12,392 nucleotides of DNA from Candidatus Hydrogenedentota bacterium (lineage in GTDB: Bacteria; Hydrogenedentota; Hydrogenedentia; Hydrogenedentales; SLHB01): the NCBI GenBank assembly GCA_963668025.2, contig CAXXTH010000002.1:1-12392 (forward strand), given 5' to 3'. Below the pieces are notes generated by a model. The model saw only the letters and a list, made by a program, of their open reading frames with translations. It was not told where the DNA came from and searched no databases. Positions 1,431-12,392 of the stretch are shown here, in pieces; position 1 is the first letter of the stretch, and every line of letters begins with the position of its first letter. Both the position numbers and the translations under genes were made by a program.

Positions 1431-1826
1431 TCAGTGTTCTTCCTCTTTGAGGAATTGCTCGTAGGCAGTCGCATCCAGTAGCGCATCGAACTCCGCGATA
1501 TTATCAGGCTTCACTTTGATCAGCCAGCCGGCCTCGTAGGGGGCCTTGTTGATGACTTCCGGCGTCGTCTCCAACCCGCTATTCGTGGCCGTGATGACGC
1601 CTGCGACGGGCATATAGACGTCTGAGGCGGCTTTGACCGATTCGATGGTGCCGAAGCGCTCGCCTTTGGCGAGTTTGGTCCCCACGCGAGGGAGTTCGAG
1701 GAAGACGATATCGCTGAGGGCGTCCTGGGCGTGGTCGCTGATGCCGATGACCAGCTCACCATTGTCCTGGCGGACCCATTCGTGTGTCTTCTGATAGCGT
1801 ACCGACGGATCAATTTGTAAGCTCAT
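1431..1826 (-). CDS. gcvH: Glycine cleavage system H protein (lipoyl carrier)
   Basis: 131 aa with Y-x-K-T-HEWV, GISDHAQDALSDIVFLELP, the lipoyl-lysine motif IESVKAASD, and PEVINKAPYEAGWL. Confidence 0.96.
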   Translation of the reverse strand: MSLQIDPSVRYQKTHEWVRQDNGELVIGISDHAQDALSDIVFLELPRVGTKLAKGERFGTIESVKAASDVYMPVAGVITATNSGLETTPEVINKAPYEAGWLIKVKPDNIAEFDALLDATAYEQFLKEEEH

Positions 1827-1879
1827 TGCAGATCAATATCCTTGTACGTAATATCTGGTTTGAAATGACTGCCTCTTTA

Positions 1880-1912
1880 GATGCAATCGAGGGTGAGAAG
1901 TTACATGGAAAC
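1880..1912 (-). repeat. Highly eroded terminal CRISPR repeat relic (trailer end)
   Basis: + strand GATGCAATCGAG...CATGGAAAC matches the repeat's two ends (9/12 and 9/9). It lies one 36-bp spacer (1913-1948) from the first full repeat, and the hairpin is lost. Confidence 0.7.
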
Positions 1913-1948
1913 ATGCCGCGCGGCTAGGCTGGCACGTGGGTACAGCCC

Positions 1949-4900
1949 GCTTCAATGGAGCCACGCTTAAACAAGCATGGAAACTTGCCCTGACGCTTGC
2001 AAACGGGATAGCAGGCATCGATGCTTCAATGGAGGCATGCTTAATCAAGCATGGAAACGAGCACCGAGCGAAGTGGATTCGGGAGTTGGTGTATGGGCTT
2101 CAATGGAGCCATGCTTGAACAAGTATGGAAACATGGTACGTGCGCGATGACCGGCGACCTGACGACACGGCTTCAATAGAGCCATGCTTAAGCAAGCATG
2201 GAAATGTGCGGTGGTGATGGCGGATGAGGGTGGCCTAGAGTTGCTTCAATGGAGCCATACTAAATCAGGCATGGAAACTCTCTCGGGGTGGGGGATGTAG
2301 ACGAAGGGCACGAAGCCGTTTCAATAGAGCCATGCTTTATCAAGCATGGAAACGCAGTATGTGAAGTCTTTGGCATAGTTGCACCACGAATGGCTTCAAT
2401 GGAGCCATGATTGAACAAGCATGGAAACACGTGCCCGGGCGCTATTGGCTTCAATAGAGCCATGCTCGTTTAAGCATGGAAACGCCTGGTCACCCAGCGT
2501 GGCGGGCGCTACACGTGTCGGCTTCGGTGGAGCCATGCTTCATCAAGCATAGAAACCATCAGGTTGCTTTGGTAAACAGTGGGTGCGACGTTGCTTCAAT
2601 GGAGCCACGCTTAAACAAGCATGGGAACCGCACTGATGTCTCGCAGCGCGGACAAATCTCAGCCCTGCTTCAATGGAGCCATGCTTGATTAAGCATGGAA
2701 ACACCTATTTGCTGAATTACAACAAGTACCTGTATGCGCTGCTTCAATGGAGCCATGCTTAAGCGAACATGGAAACCGCCTTCGAACGTTGAAGACTGCG
2801 CATCCATTATGCCGCCCCTTCAATGGAGCCATGCTTAAACAAGCATGGAAACAAATCATGATGCGGGGGAGGGGGGTCGCCAGACTCAGCTTCAATGGAG
2901 CCATGCTAAATCAGGCATGGAAATCTCGTTGAGCGTGTGCGACGAACCTCTCACGGGCATCAGCTTCAATAGAACCATGCCTGTCTAAGCATGGAAACGT
3001 GAGTCGATTTTAGCGTGGGGCGCACGTGTCGAAGGCCACTTCAATGGAGCCATGCTTCGTCATGCATGGAAACGTCCCGCGCGCACTTTGGTTTCGAGCT
3101 GCTCCAAGTCGCTTCAATGGAGCCATGCTTTATCAAGCATGGAAACTTGCCCGCGCCCGGTCACTTCAATACGCCACGCCGCGAGCTTCAATGGAGCCAT
3201 GCTTTATCAAGCATGGAAACTTAAAGTGGAATGAGTTAACGCAGACGCAGCAGGTGCTTCAATGGAGCCATGCTTTATCAAGCATGGAAACCACGCGACC
3301 AAAGGCGCACTGCTGCCCAACTCGGAGGCTTCAATGGAGCCATGCTTTATCAAGCATGGAAACACCCTTTGTGCCGGGTTGCAAGAGCGGCGTGCGTGTG
3401 CCGCTTCAATGGAGCCATGCTTTATCAAGCATGGAAACCCGGCATCAAGGAATCCACGGCCGTCGGCGCACGGGTCTAGCTTCAATGGAGCCATGCTTTA
3501 TCAAGCATGGAAACCTTCAGGTGGGGGTCAAATGGTTCTTGCCAGGCTAGTCGCTTCAATGGAGCCATGCTTTATCAAGCATGGAAACGCCGCCGGCCTT
3601 CGGGCGGATGGCTTCGTCGTTCCGGCTTCAATGGAGCCATGCTTTATCAAGCATGGAAACGAAGCCGCACAGGCGAAGGCCGATGCCGAGATGCGCGTGC
3701 TTCAATGGAGCCATGCTTTATCAAGCATGGAAACAATGGGTGGATCACACCCAATCGGGCATATAAAACAGCTTCAATGGAGCCATGCTTTATCAAGCAT
3801 GGAAACAACCCCACTATCCTATTTTCTCTTTGGTATCCCTAACGCTTCAATGGAGCCATGCTTTATCAAGCATGGAAACCTGGCGTTCCATACGTGGCGG
3901 AGGATGGCAAATTCTGCTTCAATGGAGCCATGCTTTATCAAGCATGGAAACTCTTTCATGATTTGCGCAATTTCGTCCTCGCTGTAGCCGCTTCAATGGA
4001 GCCATGCTTTATCAAGCATGGAAACCGGGAAGAATTCGATGCCATGTTAGTGCCCGAACCGACGCTTCAATGGAGCCATGCTTTATCAAGCATGGAAACC
4101 TGCTGGAAACCGCTCGCTTCTGACCCGTCCACTTCCGCTTCAATGGAGCCATGCTTTATCAAGCATGGAAACCTCAACGAAATCGGGGTCGATGAAGGTA
4201 AGATCGCATGCTTCAATGGAGCCATGCTTTATCAAGCATGGAAACTCGTCATCGATATCGAGGAAACCCGGGATGTGCCAGCTTCAATGGAGCCATGCTT
4301 TATCAAGCATGGAAACAAGTTGAGGCGGGCTGTGTTCGGGGGAATGAAGGTGGCTTCAATGGAGCCATGCTTTATCAAGCATGGAAACGTCCACTATGCC
4401 ATGATTTCGGGTTCCATCCGAGATGGCTTCAATGGAGCCATGCTTTATCAAGCATGGAAACCCCCTTTCGCTCGCTCAGCATCCACCATCCCGCGCACGC
4501 TTCAATGGAGCCATGCTTTATCAAGCATGGAAACGTGCGCGAAAGTGTCGGCAGCTCCTTCGCCGGGGCGCTACGCTTCAATGGAGCCATGCTTTATCAA
4601 GCATGGAAACTGCAGTCGCAATTCGGAGGCGAGCACGGCGGGGAACGCTTCAATGGAGCCATGCTTTATCAAGCATGGAAACGCCGTTCTCGCGCAATTC
4701 CACTCCAGGCTTACGCGCGCTTCAATGGAGCCATGCTTTATCAAGCATGGAAACATACTGTGTCTGCGCGTAGGCTTGATACTCAGTCACGCTTCAATGG
4801 AGCCATGCTTTATCAAGCATGGAAACGCGAACGCAGGCAGCGCATATAAATCCCCCGTATCAGGGCTTCAATGGAGCCATGCTTTATCAAGCATGGAAAC

Positions 4901-7672
4901 ACGCCTGATCGATGAAGACGGCGGGATATCGAAGACGCTTCAATGGAGCCATGCTTTATCAAGCATGGAAACGGAGTGAGGCGTCAGGCAGTACGTCGGC
5001 ACTTCTGAGCTTCAATGGAGCCATGCTTTATCAAGCATGGAAACTTCACCTGTATCCGCACAGATGGCTCGCCGATCTTCTTGCTTCAATGGAGCCATGC
5101 TTTATCAAGCATGGAAACTCGCTATCCAGCTCAGCATGTTCGACCTGGAGGCGCTCGCTTCAATGGAGCCATGCTTTATCAAGCATGGAAACTTGGCCAC
5201 TTGTGGACCATGAACACGACGGCGATGACGCTTCAATGGAGCCATGCTTTATCAAGCATGGAAACGGTGCAGGCGTTGAAATTGTGCTTCCCGGCACGAT
5301 ATGCTTCAATGGAGCCATGCTTTATCAAGCATGGAAACGTGGCGCTGTATGACGCTGCTCAGGCTAATCCATGGATGCTTCAATGGAGCCATGCTTTATC
5401 AAGCATGGAAACACAACTTCCCCTCCCAAACCTTAAAAATTCAAGGACGCTTCAATGGAGCCATGCTTTATCAAGCATGGAAACCATTGACCATTCTAAG
5501 GTGGGGCGGGTTAGTCGTTTTGCTTCAATGGAGCCATGCTTTATCAAGCATGGAAACGCAGATCCTCAATCGACATCCGTCGTGTTTCAATCCGCTTCAA
5601 TGGAGCCATGCTTTATCAAGCATGGAAACGTCCTTGAGTGATTTGGTCAGGTCAGGCATGCTAATGCTTCAATGGAGCCATGCTTTATCAAGCATGGAAA
5701 CTTTATTCGTCCACGATGATCCGCCGGTCATCAGATAGCTTCAATGGAGCCATGCTTTATCAAGCATGGAAACACACCGGTTGCATCGCGGCTTACGACG
5801 TCTATTTGTCGAGCTTCAATGGAGCCATGCTTTATCAAGCATGGAAACCGCTTGGCTATTGCACGCTGCCCTACTCTGCGAATGCGCTTCAATGGAGCCA
5901 TGCTTTATCAAGCATGGAAACGATGCTAGAGTTTTCACTTTCATTTCCTCCGGCTCACACGCTTCAATGGAGCCATGCTTTATCAAGCATGGAAACTGTT
6001 ACCGCATCTACATTCCACGGCGACGTGTAATAGCTTCAATGGAGCCATGCTTTATCAAGCATGGAAACCATCACGCGGTAGGGATTTATCAGTCGGCCAT
6101 AGCTTGCTTCAATGGAGCCATGCTTTATCAAGCATGGAAACTGGACGCCGACGACATGATCGAACCGGCCTACATAGGCTTCAATGGAGCCATGCTTTAT
6201 CAAGCATGGAAACTTCTGCGTTCGATTGCCCGCCGCCACTACCTTCCCCGCTTCAATGGAGCCATGCTTTATCAAGCATGGAAACAATTCCAAGACGATG
6301 AAATGGACGACGTTCCCTAGGCGCTTCAATGGAGCCATGCTTTATCAAGCATGGAAACGTGGGACGAATCGAAGCACCCGCGCGGTGAGGCCGGGCTTCA
6401 ATGGAGCCATGCTTTATCAAGCATGGAAACTAACCGACCTACTAAGCGATGTTGCTGACGCGGTGGCGCTTCAATGGAGCCATGCTTTATCAAGCATGGA
6501 AACTTAATGGACCGCATGGATGCTGCGGGCGTACAATATCGCTTCAATGGAGCCATGCTTTATCAAGCATGGAAACGTTAGGCGTGTACGGTTGCACGGA
6601 AACGGCCCTGGCGCGCTTCAATGGAGCCATGCTTTATCAAGCATGGAAACGCGGCGGTGGGTTGGGGGCAACGGCGCGGGTGGTGCGTGCTTCAATGGAG
6701 CCATGCTTTATCAAGCATGGAAACCAACCCTTAGGCACTGAAAAGAAGCCATGCTGAGGGGCTTCAATGGAGCCATGCTTTATCAAGCATGGAAACAAGG
6801 GCAAGGGCGCGGATTACGGCGTTAGTTCAGATGCTTCAATGGAGCCATGCTTTATCAAGCATGGAAACTAAAGAGAAGCCATCACCGCCACCTGCCGTGG
6901 CGCGGCTTCAATGGAGCCATGCTTTATCAAGCATGGAAACTTGTCCCAGGTCGGCTGCGTGGTACCCGGGTGGCGTATCGGCTTCAATGGAGCCATGCTT
7001 TATCAAGCATGGAAACATCCTGATATGAGTTTGCCTGATGCGGAGGATGTGTCGCTTCAATGGAGCCATGCTTTATCAAGCATGGAAACACTATCATCGG
7101 TTGCCGATTTATCCCGGCGTGAATCTGCTTCAATGGAGCCATGCTTTATCAAGCATGGAAACCACTACGACGACCGCACTCGCGCTTAATAACACTACGC
7201 TTCAATGGAGCCATGCTTTATCAAGCATGGAAACTTCTCACATATGGCCCGAGCACGGGCACTGACCTGTTCGCTTCAATGGAGCCATGCTTTATCAAGC
7301 ATGGAAACGATCAAACTGTGAACCTTGCTGGCCAGGACCACCGCGCTTCAATGGAGCCATGCTTTATCAAGCATGGAAACTTGTGATACCGGCAGGCACG
7401 TCCACGGACACGCTGAAGCTTCAATGGAGCCATGCTTTATCAAGCATGGAAACAAACTCCTGTGTCATCGCGCCAACAAGCCTGCCCGAGCTTCAATGGA
7501 GCCATGCTTTATCAAGCATGGAAACTTACGCGGCATGATGCTTAACCCCCTTTAGCGTAACTTGCTTCAATGGAGCCATGCTTTATCAAGCATGGAAACT
7601 CTACTCGCTCGGTTGCGTTGACCTGAGCGGCGCCTGGCTTCAATGGAGCCATGCTTTATCAAGCATGGAAAC
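1949..7672 (-). CRISPR. Type I-G (I-U) CRISPR array: 79 repeats of 36 bp and 78 spacers (mostly 35-40 bp)
   Basis: The + strand repeat is GCTTCAATGGAGCCATGCTTTATCAAGCATGGAAAC. Its reverse complement ends in ATTGAAGC (I-G-type 3' end) and has an 8-bp stem CCATGCTT/AAGCATGG with a 4-nt loop. There are 63 identical copies at 3111-7672 (mean period 73 bp) and 16 variant copies at 1949-3073. Minus orientation is inferred from the ATTGAAGC end, the leader next to cas2, and degeneracy at the opposite end. Confidence 0.99.
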
Positions 7673-7985
7673 GTTTCCTCTGACAGTGGCGCGTAGTATA
7701 ACCTTTTTGGGCTTATTGGTTGGTGAAGTGGGACAATCCTTGATGGTTTGGCAGGCCTTCTATGCAACATTCAGGGCGTTGTCCCTGTGTCTCTAGCGCC
7801 ATCATTCGGCCCTAACGCGGCGGTTAATCGAACTTGCTGATTAACCGTCGCATAACAAGGCTTCTATGGGTTAAGCGTCGCGAGAGGGTCCCCTACTGGC
7901 ACATGCCACCTCACCTCTCGCGACTCATCCGCGGGAAAAAGAAGGTGATATTCAACTGGTAAGGTGCTTGTCTTGTGGAAGGCCG
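7673..7985 (-). promoter_or_regulatory. CRISPR leader
   Basis: A 313-bp region with no credible gene, between the cas2 stop and the first perfect repeat. It contains inverted repeats at 7730-7785, 7817-7851 and 7877-7924. Confidence 0.85.
7695..7700 (-). promoter_or_regulatory. Candidate -10 element (TATACT) for pre-crRNA transcription
   Basis: TATACT on the minus strand, 22 bp upstream of the first repeat. There is no convincing -35 at canonical spacing, so support is weak. Confidence 0.3.
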
Positions 7986-8277
7986 TCAGATGATGACGGC
8001 GCAGTGTTCGCTGGGACTATAGGATAAGCCGACGGCGTAAACATGTTGCTCGTTTGTTCCGCCGGCGGGTCCTAATGGGAAGAACAATACCTGATCTGCA
8101 TCATGCTTGATGACACGCTTCAGTTTGTCGGTCAGTTCCACGCGCTCGCGGTCTGTCAGCTCACAACGAAAAACGGAGTATTGCAGATGATCGCCATAAC
8201 CCGCGCATGAGCCTGAACACACTGCGCCAGCGGCGGTCATCGCACACGTCGTACACCACGATATACAGTAAACGCAT
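7986..8277 (-). CDS. cas2: CRISPR-associated endoribonuclease Cas2 (one apparent +1 frameshift at 8200-8202)
   Basis: ATG at 8277 with a GAGGA SD gives MRLLYIVVYDVCDDRRWRSVFRLMRG. Removing one G joins this to YGDHLQYSVFRCELTDRERVELTDKLKRVIKHDADQVLFFPLGP...AVII*, 96 aa in total. The Y-x-V-x-YD and QYSVF motifs are Cas2 hallmarks. Confidence 0.95.
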
Positions 8278-8283
8278 GATTCC

Positions 8284-10003
<1,720 letters not shown>

Positions 10004-10007
<4 letters not shown>

Positions 10008-11551
10008 GATGTTTTCCCGTCGCTCATGGGTGCGAATAACCCTAGCCCAAAGTGGCACGCATAACCCAGCGCAAGAGGGCCTCTTACTGGTTCAGGGAAT
10101 TCGATGATGAACCCGGTACCCGGTGTGTTGCCGCGTCGTCCGTCACCAAATACACGCTGTTGGCGAAACTCCAGCCAGCGCAGCGAACGTCCTGTCGCTT
10201 TCTGTTCAACGTGATTCCACAACGCGCACTCATCCAATGGTTTCACACTTGTTGGAACTGGCAAACCACGCCGCATCATTTCCTCACGCAATACTACTTC
10301 GGCGAACTGTTCTGGTGGGCAAGTATCGCGTTTCGTCCCGTGCCGCTTATAGTGACGTGTGGGAACAAACGGCGTGACAGAACACCAACGTCGAGCAGAA
10401 GTGGTTAGGACTAATTGATCGCACGGCTGCCCCCAACCCAGCCAAACGAGATTTAGAATCATTCCACCCGGCCCACGTGTCTGCCGCCATTCATCCAGCG
10501 CCGCCATTTCACGCGCTTTGAGGCCTTCGGGCGCGTAAAGCGTCAGGTGATCAAGTCTCCCGTCGCCATCTTCGTCGGTCGGCAAAAAGAAGGCATGCCG
10601 ATGTTCTGTCAGTGGCATACCCTGGGGTGTCTTACCAGCAAATGTTGGCGAAGCGGTTCCTCCAAATAAACGCCCATATATGCCTTGCACACGCTGACGA
10701 GACAACTCGGCCACGTAGACCGTCTCTTTTAAGCGAGGCAACACCGGGCCATCCAGCGCGAACCTGGCTAATTGGGGACATGGCGCTGACAAAGCGGTGC
10801 GCCCTCGGTGAACAGCAGCCGGCACGTTCAGCGACTGAGTCGGGCGCAAGTAGGTAATCCATTGCGCGCCGGGTGGGTCTGCCCAACCTTCTGCGTGAAG
10901 ATCGGCCGTTTCTGCCAGCAAGTTCCATGCTGGATCGGGGCGGGCGGTGCCTTCACTGTAGCTCCATTCGTGCCACGTAACGCGATCAGGACATAGCACA
11001 CGCGTTGGTTCCGTGCCTTTGAGTTCAGCATAGTGTAGTTCGCCGCTCTCAGAATCCAACCAACCACAAATCTCACCTGGCAGAACCTCCCAATTCATAC
11101 ATAGGCGCGCCGCGCACCAGGATTCGGCGCGCCCCAGATAACTTAAGCCACTAAGTGTCCGCGCCAACACTTCTGTTTCGTTCACCGTGAGGTCGATCTC
11201 CGGCCAGCACAAGCCAATCTCGGCAGAAGACCCGATAGCGATGAAGGTGTCGAACACCAACGTCCTATCACCAGGGCCTTTTTTAAACCATGGCATGAAG
11301 TGTCGCGTGTGCCCAAGCGTAGCAGGTGGTAGTTTGAAGATAGGTGGCGCGGTCAGCTTCGATAGCGCCAAGGGAAGCTCGGCGTTAACCAGTGGGTCAG
11401 CGCCAAGCTTGCGCTTCCACACTGCACACAATGCGCGCAAGACGCGCCAGGGTGAGGGTGGCCATTCCGGTGCACCCTCGTTCACATGACGGCCCCAGGG
11501 CGTGGCGTGGAATCGCCCGCCCGGAAAGGAAATCGCAATGGCAAGTGGCAT
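10004..11551 (-). CDS. csb2: Type I-G Csb2 (Cas5/Cas6 fusion; crRNA processing and effector subunit)
   Basis: N-terminal GRFHATPWG..VNEGAPEWPPSPWRVLRAL, then LSYLGRAESW, HAFFLPTDEDGDGRLDHL and W-x-SVTPFV. It ends with the Cas6 glycine-rich loop GPLALGYACHFGLGLF. The ATG at 11551 (preceded by GGGAGG) is preferred to the track's start at 11569. Intact, 515 aa. Confidence 0.93.
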
Positions 11552-11565
11552 AGCACCCTCCCTTC

Positions 11566-12392
<827 letters not shown>

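Follow-up and report, generated by a model that had tools for sequence, protein, structure and literature searches.

Polymorphic terminal repeats of CRISPR arrays are reported to resist the repeat-repeat events that delete spacers (available parts of Garrett 2021, PMC8047081; Mitrofanov et al. 2026, PMC12839519; Fehrenbach et al. 2024, PMC11472070). Arrays may also collapse to one surviving repeat and then be repopulated with identical copies, according to the accessible text of Deecker and Ensminger (2020; PMC7056967), and the degenerate repeats of CreTA were experimentally shown not to recombine (Cheng et al. 2022, PMC9458426, in its accessible portion). Here we describe a type I-G (formerly I-U) array on contig CAXXTH010000002.1 of a Candidatus Hydrogenedentota bacterium, in which the sixteen leader-distal repeats (positions 1949-3073, the old block) all differ from one another and the following 63 (the young block) are identical. 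The window, i.e. the whole stretch of DNA analyzed, is the complete contig C2 (12,392 bases) of a 6.1-Mb, 24-contig genome that is 93.75% complete. With moderate confidence, we read the old block as a passively retained fossil trailer, left by a type I-G array that went through two epochs.

As in terminal-repeat polymorphism, the mutated repeats are located distal to the leader, old spacers have been kept and mismatches would bar their deletion. However, the known polymorphism concerns one repeat and ordinary terminal degeneracy a few, whereas here 16 full consecutive repeats (17 with a truncated remnant) are affected, each different, with no gradient and with half of the changes in the hairpin loop. 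Table 1 of PMC12839519 does not include type I-G. If the block is a passive fossil, as seems most likely, it is an extreme case of the known trailer-end repeat degeneracy, with 16-17 units instead of one. The likeness to collapse and repopulation is that all new repeats are identical to the survivor; in the case of Deecker and Ensminger the whole array collapses onto the terminal repeat, whereas in the window only the identical-repeat part would have done so, leaving a diverged block. The repeats of CreA and CreTA are likewise degenerate and non-recombining, hence stable (for the block, the lack of recombination is our inference), but CreA consists of one or two ectopic repeats outside an array, with their own promoter and partial complementarity to the promoter of a neighboring host toxin gene. 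The block, in contrast, lies inside an array, comprises 16 units with spacers of normal length, and shows neither a host match beyond chance nor a promoter-like site. In the literature searched, which left aside most subscription papers and supplements, terminal repeats and general distal-end decay are discussed and no such block is described.

Sixteen diverged repeats at the trailer end

A fuzzy search with the commonest repeat identified 79 repeats, each exactly 36 nt, between positions 1949 and 7672, and a repeat finder also returned 79; this is the sole array with its repeat in the genome. The regular direct repeats are separated by unique spacers, 77 of 78 being 35-40 nt and the remaining one 19 nt long, and the likeness between any two spacers never exceeds 14 nt. 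The leader and cas genes are situated on the 7673 side, and therefore the array is read on the minus strand and 1949-3073 is its trailer end. The array features, all on the minus strand, are as follows.

1903-1912, minus strand: repeat remnant (truncated terminal repeat, the 17th old one), an exact 10-mer corresponding to the last 9-10 nt of the plus-strand repeat, exactly 36 nt before repeat 1
1913-1948, minus strand: 36-nt stretch of spacer length, the oldest one, separating the remnant from repeat 1
1949-3073, minus strand: old block, composed of 16 repeats of 36 nt, no two of them alike, with 15 spacers (36-40 nt, but 19 nt in one case)
2429-2447, minus strand: truncated 19-nt spacer between repeats 7 and 8, the sole clear deletion of the block
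3074-3110, minus strand: boundary spacer, between variant repeat 16 and modern repeat 17
3111-7672, minus strand: young block, composed of 63 repeats of identical sequence with 62 spacers (35-40 nt)

The remainder of the remnant (1877-1902) resembles the repeat no better than chance (best ungapped identity 16/36, P = 0.54).

Compared with the commonest repeat, repeats 1-16 carry 3, 2, 3, 4, 4, 2, 3, 5, 4, 4, 2, 4, 3, 4, 7 and 4 substitutions, respectively, 58 in total, and no indels. All 16 are distinct, and repeats 17-79 are identical as read in the assembly, short-read contig cover being almost nil in the young block. These counts reproduce the original prediction, made from the sequence alone, of sixteen distinct 36-nt repeats with 2-7 substitutions each, followed by 63 identical ones. 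The consensus of the old block differs from the modern repeat at one position only (21). In the fold of the minus-strand repeat, RNA positions 5-12 pair with 17-24, giving a hairpin of 8 bp that is capped by a 4-nt loop; 4 nt come after it, and a further 8 nt complete the repeat. A per-position tally, which agreed with the numbers given earlier, assigned 29 substitutions and ten loop variants to the loop (plus-strand positions 21-24) and 29 substitutions to the other 32 positions, namely 5 to the handle (positions 1-8), 5 to the linker (9-12), 16 to the stem and 3 to positions 33-36.

Parts of the block are present in two public runs, X1 and X2, which come from one study, possibly from the source sample. 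Logan contigs from these runs cover 1949-2592 and 2322-2661 (repeats 1-10) without a single differing letter. One X1 contig loops from 2592 back to 1949 via 32 nt common to repeats 1 and 10; this join is most likely an assembly-graph loop, although repeats 1 and 10 are the only old pair still able to misalign. A further X1 contig joins repeat 1 at 1947 out of a different sequence.

The variation lacks the trend expected of gradual decay from the end. Divergence along the block gave a Spearman rho of +0.45 for all positions and +0.35 for non-loop positions, opposite to gradual decay; neighboring repeats are no closer to each other (mean distance 5.87) than non-neighbors (5.37), and the distance matrix is star-like with the modern repeat near its center. 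At 2% of the age of the old block, the 63 young repeats would be expected to carry 4.6 substitutions, and none was seen (P = 0.01). Taken together, these observations exclude slow unit-by-unit decay from the end and suggest two epochs; the distinct old block with a sharp boundary that had been proposed is thereby borne out. The identity of the 63 young repeats would fit regrowth from one surviving repeat, as judged from a single genome.

The non-loop divergence of the old block is ∼0.059 substitutions per site. Fifteen of the 16 old repeats match the modern repeat without interruption over no more than 12-20 nt (27 nt in repeat 6), and among the old repeats only one pair, 1 and 10, shares 24 nt or more, all others staying at or below 22 nt. 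The earlier suggestion that non-identical repeats would resist deletion fits these values. The block is of modest age: the spread of spacer lengths has been kept (standard deviation 1.15 in old vs. 1.17 in new spacers, Levene p = 0.86), no repeat has acquired an indel and one spacer is truncated. Old spacers (1985-3110) are slightly longer than new ones (3147-7636), with 37.8 vs. 37.0 nt (Mann-Whitney p = 0.016). They also differ from new ones in the frequency of G at the bases closest to the protospacer adjacent motif (PAM), with 9/16 old vs. 12/62 new at base 2 (uncorrected for multiple tests) and 4/16 vs. 27/62 at base 1. A one-base shift in spacer trimming during the earlier epoch may lie behind both the length and the position of G.

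Stem and loop of the repeat hairpin

The old repeats had been characterized as structure-preserving. The underlying counts were reproduced: among the 16 stem changes in the minus-strand RNA, 7 result in G-U pairs and 9 break a pair (per-repeat pair counts and folds), with 6 of the breaks in the two loop-adjacent pairs (repeats 5, 12, 14 and 16) and 3 lower in the stem (repeats 2, 3 and 7). The characterization itself did not hold, since the stem is kept no better than the flanks or chance once the loop is set aside. When the number of non-loop substitutions was fixed and their placement randomized, 119.5 of 128 pairs were expected to be kept, and 119 were (P = 0.67). G-U pairs were the outcome of 7 of the 11 stem transitions, which is no excess (p = 0.27), and no compensatory change was found, no pair in the 16 old repeats being altered on both sides. 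The substitution rate of the stem (16/256 = 6.3%) is not below that of the flanks (5.1%), and the handle, the linker, both stem arms and the 5′ flank have rates of 3.9-7.8% (chi-square p = 0.76). At least one pair is broken in 7 of the 16 hairpins and the other 9 are fully paired; two old hairpins fold at -3.5 kcal/mol, compared with -11.4 kcal/mol for the modern repeat. The marks of a structure-conserving RNA hairpin, i.e. an excess of compensatory or wobble changes and conservation of the stem above its flanks, are thus absent.

One Poisson rate describes the 32 positions outside the loop (13 unchanged vs. 12.9 expected; dispersion p = 0.24), and 23 of their 29 substitutions (79%) are transitions, a proportion close to the 75-77% found when the window contig is compared with its relatives in the runs. 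The pattern at these positions resembles background mutation that has passed no filter, and not graded constraint. The positional test against a neutral model, which was suggested with the original prediction, had a divided outcome: the loop holds an excess of changes as proposed, and the remaining 32 positions are uniform. The premise that processing polices the stem is weakened by a preprint, the accessible part of which reports that another type I-G Csb2 cuts in vitro whatever the stem and needs the region 5′ of the stem. If such stem indifference is general, Csb2 would go on cutting most of the old repeats, and processing would exert no control over the stem. Judging from the nine fully paired hairpins and the mostly intact handles, partial cutting of the RNAs from the block probably continues.

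The loop excess is real. Relative to the modern repeat, 29 of 58 substitutions fall in 4 of 36 positions (binomial p = 2e-13); relative to the block's own consensus, which reconstructs the ancestral loop, the figure is 22 of 51 (p = 6e-9), and the excess persists when only the minimum number of states is counted (p = 0.005). Parsimony gave 10 loop vs. 25 non-loop changes on an all-site tree (3.2-fold per site, p = 0.004), and 22 vs. 23 on a tree built without the loop (7.7-fold). The enrichment therefore lies between 3.2- and 7.7-fold, according to the treatment of shared ancestry. Of the ∼8-fold enrichment claimed previously, the excess stands and the size is an upper estimate, because the ancestral base at position 21 differs and the repeats share ancestry. 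The caveat originally attached to this claim, that a different ancestral loop would inflate the count, was well placed, since the block consensus does differ at position 21; the excess survives the correction.

The type I-G locus, its relatives and spacer targets

To the right of the array, a leader of ∼310 nt is followed by minus-strand cas2, a cas4/cas1 fusion, csb2 and csb1, which belong to the type I-G signature set; the array is of the type I-G kind. Cas4g/Cas1g, Csb2 and Csb1 matched NCBIfam models, and the match of Cas2 was weak.

7673-7985, minus strand: leader, with blocks conserved in the leader of the related locus L010
7986-8280, minus strand: cas2 (TIGR01573, E 2.5e-4, below the curated cut-off for an 84-aa piece), read through an extra base in a C run
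8283-10058, minus strand: cas4g/cas1g fusion (NF049935, 4.6e-158 and 1.2e-35), in three frame pieces in the assembly
10004-11569, minus strand: csb2 (Cas5-Cas6 fusion, type I-G pre-crRNA nuclease; TIGR02165, 2.5e-45, profile 2-492 of 492)
11566-12392, minus strand: csb1/cas7g, incomplete because the contig ends within the gene; the assembly shows frame breaks here

In type I-G, Csb2 was found to cut 4 nt past the hairpin base, leaving an 8-nt 5′ handle (Shangguan et al. 2022, PMC9638904, in its accessible part). That system and the window have in common the 36-nt repeat, the hairpin base 4 nt before the cut (predicted for the window) and the layout for an 8-nt handle, together with the genes for the Cas4/Cas1 fusion, Cas2, Csb2 and Csb1; the window contig terminates inside csb1, before any cas8g or cas3 could come into view. 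The repeat layout of hairpin, 4-nt linker and 8-nt handle matches this arrangement, so that cleavage by Csb2 is predicted. An Rfam search with the repeat returned no family. The genome's only Cas3 match above the family cut-off is located on contig C17, ∼6 kb from another array. Two further arrays, G000:C10:921121-922675 (24 repeats) and G000:C17:335701-336310 (9 repeats), have other repeats that appear uniform by eye. The leader at 7673-7985 shares several conserved blocks with that of L010, which lies in a genome labeled Chloroflexi, and the ∼30 nt beside the repeat are among the best kept.

Frame breaks were noted at 1172 (in a rhodanese-like gene), about 8203 (cas2), 8414-8782 (cas4/cas1), and 11959-11963 and 12363 (csb1). 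Otherwise identical short-read contigs differ from the assembly by single bases at 8681, 11959, 11963 and 12363, mostly in short C runs: one X2 contig lacks the base at 8681, and X2 contigs add single C's behind 11959, 11963 and 12363. The break in cas2 is one extra C relative to L010 (a one-base alignment gap). Because of these single-base differences from the contigs and from L010, the frame breaks are most likely length errors of the assembly and not gene decay; the reading of the cas genes as pseudogenes was ruled out on the same grounds.

Conservation of the block in related genomes, which had been suggested as a check, could not be shown: BLAST of 1800-3200 against 40 relatives gave no match, and the repeat pattern, allowing up to 3 mismatches, was absent from all 134 other genomes of the phylum. 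The exact repeat pattern was found in two stretches of genome contigs, L009 and L010, which contain related repeats and not the block, and in one stretch of metagenome contigs, L011, which proved to be a chance match without an array. The genome holding L010 has a single repeat, at a contig end. The repeat family is thus present in genomes labeled as two other phyla, and the window, L010 and L009 have three different loops on the same stem. Contigs of a sister strain cover the flank genes at 1-1908, with 75 differing letters in ∼1,965 bases (∼96% identity), and part from the window at 1908, a point within the remnant; this strain lacks an identical array at that place.

For comparison within the repeat family, 287 repeats (283 without N) were collected from 29 of 81 loci examined (L031-L106) in G136, a related genome labeled Gemmataceae, where the family is spread over 29 small contigs. 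Its two trailer-like ends have one deviating repeat each. Its variants, which have T or C at position 20 or differ at position 1, lie in contiguous runs, the pattern that would arise if later repeats inherit what has changed in their template. Given the ordinary pattern of G136 and of the genome's two other arrays, the block is atypical for its repeat family.

The original prediction had raised the possibility that the block is a domesticated or regulatory module of guides. A search of the host chromosome (genome 93.75% complete) found no match beyond chance for old or new spacers alike, the best host matches scoring 29.0 vs. 28.7 bits (p = 0.92) and the hits of at least 30 bits numbering 0.56 vs. 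0.58 per spacer. The boundary spacer (3074-3110) has an 18-nt exact match to contig C9 that does not extend (22/37) and is at chance level. A simple consensus scan of 1700-8100 revealed no promoter-like site on the minus strand. None of these searches supports such a module. As for mobile elements, the whole array gave one match to 50,697 phage records (E = 0.5) and a best match of E = 0.1 to 72,556 plasmids, and exact 22-29-nt parts of spacers 78, 77, 17 and 11 (4 of 78 spacers, exact search only) had no match in IMG/VR. One X2 contig contains spacer 17 (3147-3184) exactly, between unrelated flanks, and its PAM-side flank in the sense of the CRISPR RNA (crRNA) is TTG, which fits TTN, the motif cited for the PAM side in type I-G. 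This contig is likely to represent a protospacer of the oldest young spacer.

Histories of the block

From the anatomy and statistics of the block, we infer the following order of events. In a first epoch, an earlier array of identical repeats would have ceased to grow, and its stalled repeats would have mutated independently in place, giving a star-like set of 16 (17 with the remnant) of equal age. The diverged repeats would have lost their long identical tracts with each other and with the active repeat, so that misalignment and recombination, the usual route of spacer loss, could no longer remove the block. The spacer deletion rate has a published median of 374 times the per-site mutation rate (in the part of the source available), and ordinary spacers would therefore not last for 0.059 substitutions per site, which is in favor of such protection. 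In a second epoch, the leader side would have been reduced to, or replaced by, a single intact repeat, followed by fast regrowth to 63 identical copies, and the boundary would be sharp because there was a single reset event. This reset may have been a partial collapse or an import by recombination. The loop would be under the least constraint of all parts of the hairpin and, at the DNA level, might also undergo hairpin-specific changes, loop inversion among them. The block can be explained without any special function.

Several observations weigh against this history. At the published median deletion rate, a quiescent array would vanish before diverging, and a ∼10x lower rate would be needed. 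Two to four derived bases are common to the non-adjacent repeats 1/10/13, 5/14, 8/15 and 3/7, so the 16 repeats did not diverge in complete independence, and their history must have involved some conversion or been more complex. The two-epoch model alone also does not account for the loop excess. The loop spectrum (7 transitions and 22 transversions) differs from that outside the loop (23 and 6; Fisher 5.5e-5), and it remains significantly different when transversions are counted against the block consensus (12/22). In G136, 0 of 283 repeats have a loop change, compared with five internal non-loop singletons; an 8-fold loop hot spot would give ∼5, and a simple hot spot is therefore unsupported. 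Another X2 contig matches the window from 2701, two bases before old spacer 11, after an unrelated sequence. It is a possible protospacer of this spacer, in which case an old guide would still have a target; a live target would favor retained function and is the best lead for the idea put forward originally. Finally, the proposed order of events is drawn from the array of a single strain.

Candidate causes of the loop diversity are relaxed constraint, DNA changes peculiar to hairpins and conversion among repeats, the last suggested by the derived bases that non-adjacent repeats share. Among the ten loops, two are the exact reverse complements of two more (P = 0.006 under a composition null, P = 0.12 under column shuffling); loop inversion by template switching in a DNA hairpin would fit such loops, which is an equivocal lead only. 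Repeats nine units apart are somewhat closer to each other (mean distance 4.0 vs. about 5.4), this being one of 12 offsets compared. A duplication of segments within the block was ruled out, as no two spacers are similar.

A possible, though rather unlikely, alternative is that the boundary is a recombination joint, at which a horizontally acquired type I-G locus (cas genes, leader and fresh array) was joined at a repeat to a decayed resident array, in which case the two blocks would never have had a growing end in common. The repeat is found in none of the 134 other genomes of the phylum and does occur in genomes labeled as two other phyla, so the locus moves horizontally; old spacers are slightly longer, the difference in PAM-proximal base use (uncorrected) hints at another acquisition regime, and the ∼96% identical sister strain departs from the window at 1908. 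However, the block consensus is one position away from the modern repeat, so that one lineage suffices, the spacing is seamless with no second leader, and no donor or recipient form was found among the genomes searched. Such a joint would depart from the passive two-epoch history only in the way the leader side was reset.

It is doubtful that the block is a selected, recombination-proof memory or a set of domesticated guides, with purifying selection on stem, linker and handle and a drifting loop. This would accommodate the 3.2- to 7.7-fold loop excess, the retention of exactly 36 nt in 16 of 16 repeats and of spacer lengths, and the different loops on the same stem in the window, L010 and L009. 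The lack of a loop hot spot in the G136 family would leave relaxed constraint as the simpler reason, old spacer 11 has its possible protospacer in X2, and a 2026 preprint, as far as its accessible text goes, models distal spacers as long-term memory. On the other hand, the stem is kept no better than its flanks or chance, with no G-U excess, no compensatory pair, 7 of 16 hairpins broken and two at -3.5 vs. -11.4 kcal/mol, and outside the loop one neutral-looking rate and spectrum suffices. Indels occur at a ratio of about 1 to 10 substitutions; if the loop rate (0.46-0.70 per site) were the neutral one, spacers would be scrambled and their lengths blurred, which they are not. There are also no host targets and no promoter-like site, and Csb2 was reported to be stem-indifferent in vitro in the available text of one preprint. 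The proposal that the block was kept for a long time under selection for processability is accordingly disfavored by the neutral appearance of the non-loop sites. We consider it similarly improbable that the 16 old guides are locked in by divergence that Csb2 tolerates, some still being processed and matching mobile elements that live with the host, as the possible protospacer of spacer 11 would suggest, which would make the locus a natural "dual memory" array of the kind that theory predicts.

A slow ratchet, with protection creeping inward from the terminal repeat by one unit per mutated repeat, would be a direct consequence of the published proposal that mutation of the last repeat shields the last spacer, but mutations should then be most numerous in the trailer-most repeats, and the trend is flat or opposite (rho +0.45 and +0.35), making the ratchet very improbable. 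That the variant repeats are an artefact of assembly or consensus is hardly credible: the contig does have single-base length errors in cas2, cas1, csb1 and the rhodanese-like gene, but these are indels, whereas the repeats differ by substitutions only and in only 16 of 79 copies, and the independent short-read contigs, which bear on the artefact test named in the original prediction, exactly match the variants over 1949-2661.

If the block is a passive fossil, it represents an extreme example of a known phenomenon and not a new mechanism. How long CRISPR memory lasts and why spacers persist at the trailer end are wider questions, for which this array provides a clean natural case, since a whole block of old units has outlived the complete turnover of the remaining array. 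Its 16 natural repeat variants, from the little-studied type I-G, make the idea that mutated repeats protect spacers directly testable, and the loop-focused, transversion-rich variation could inform on the substrate needs of Csb2 or on mutation in DNA hairpins.

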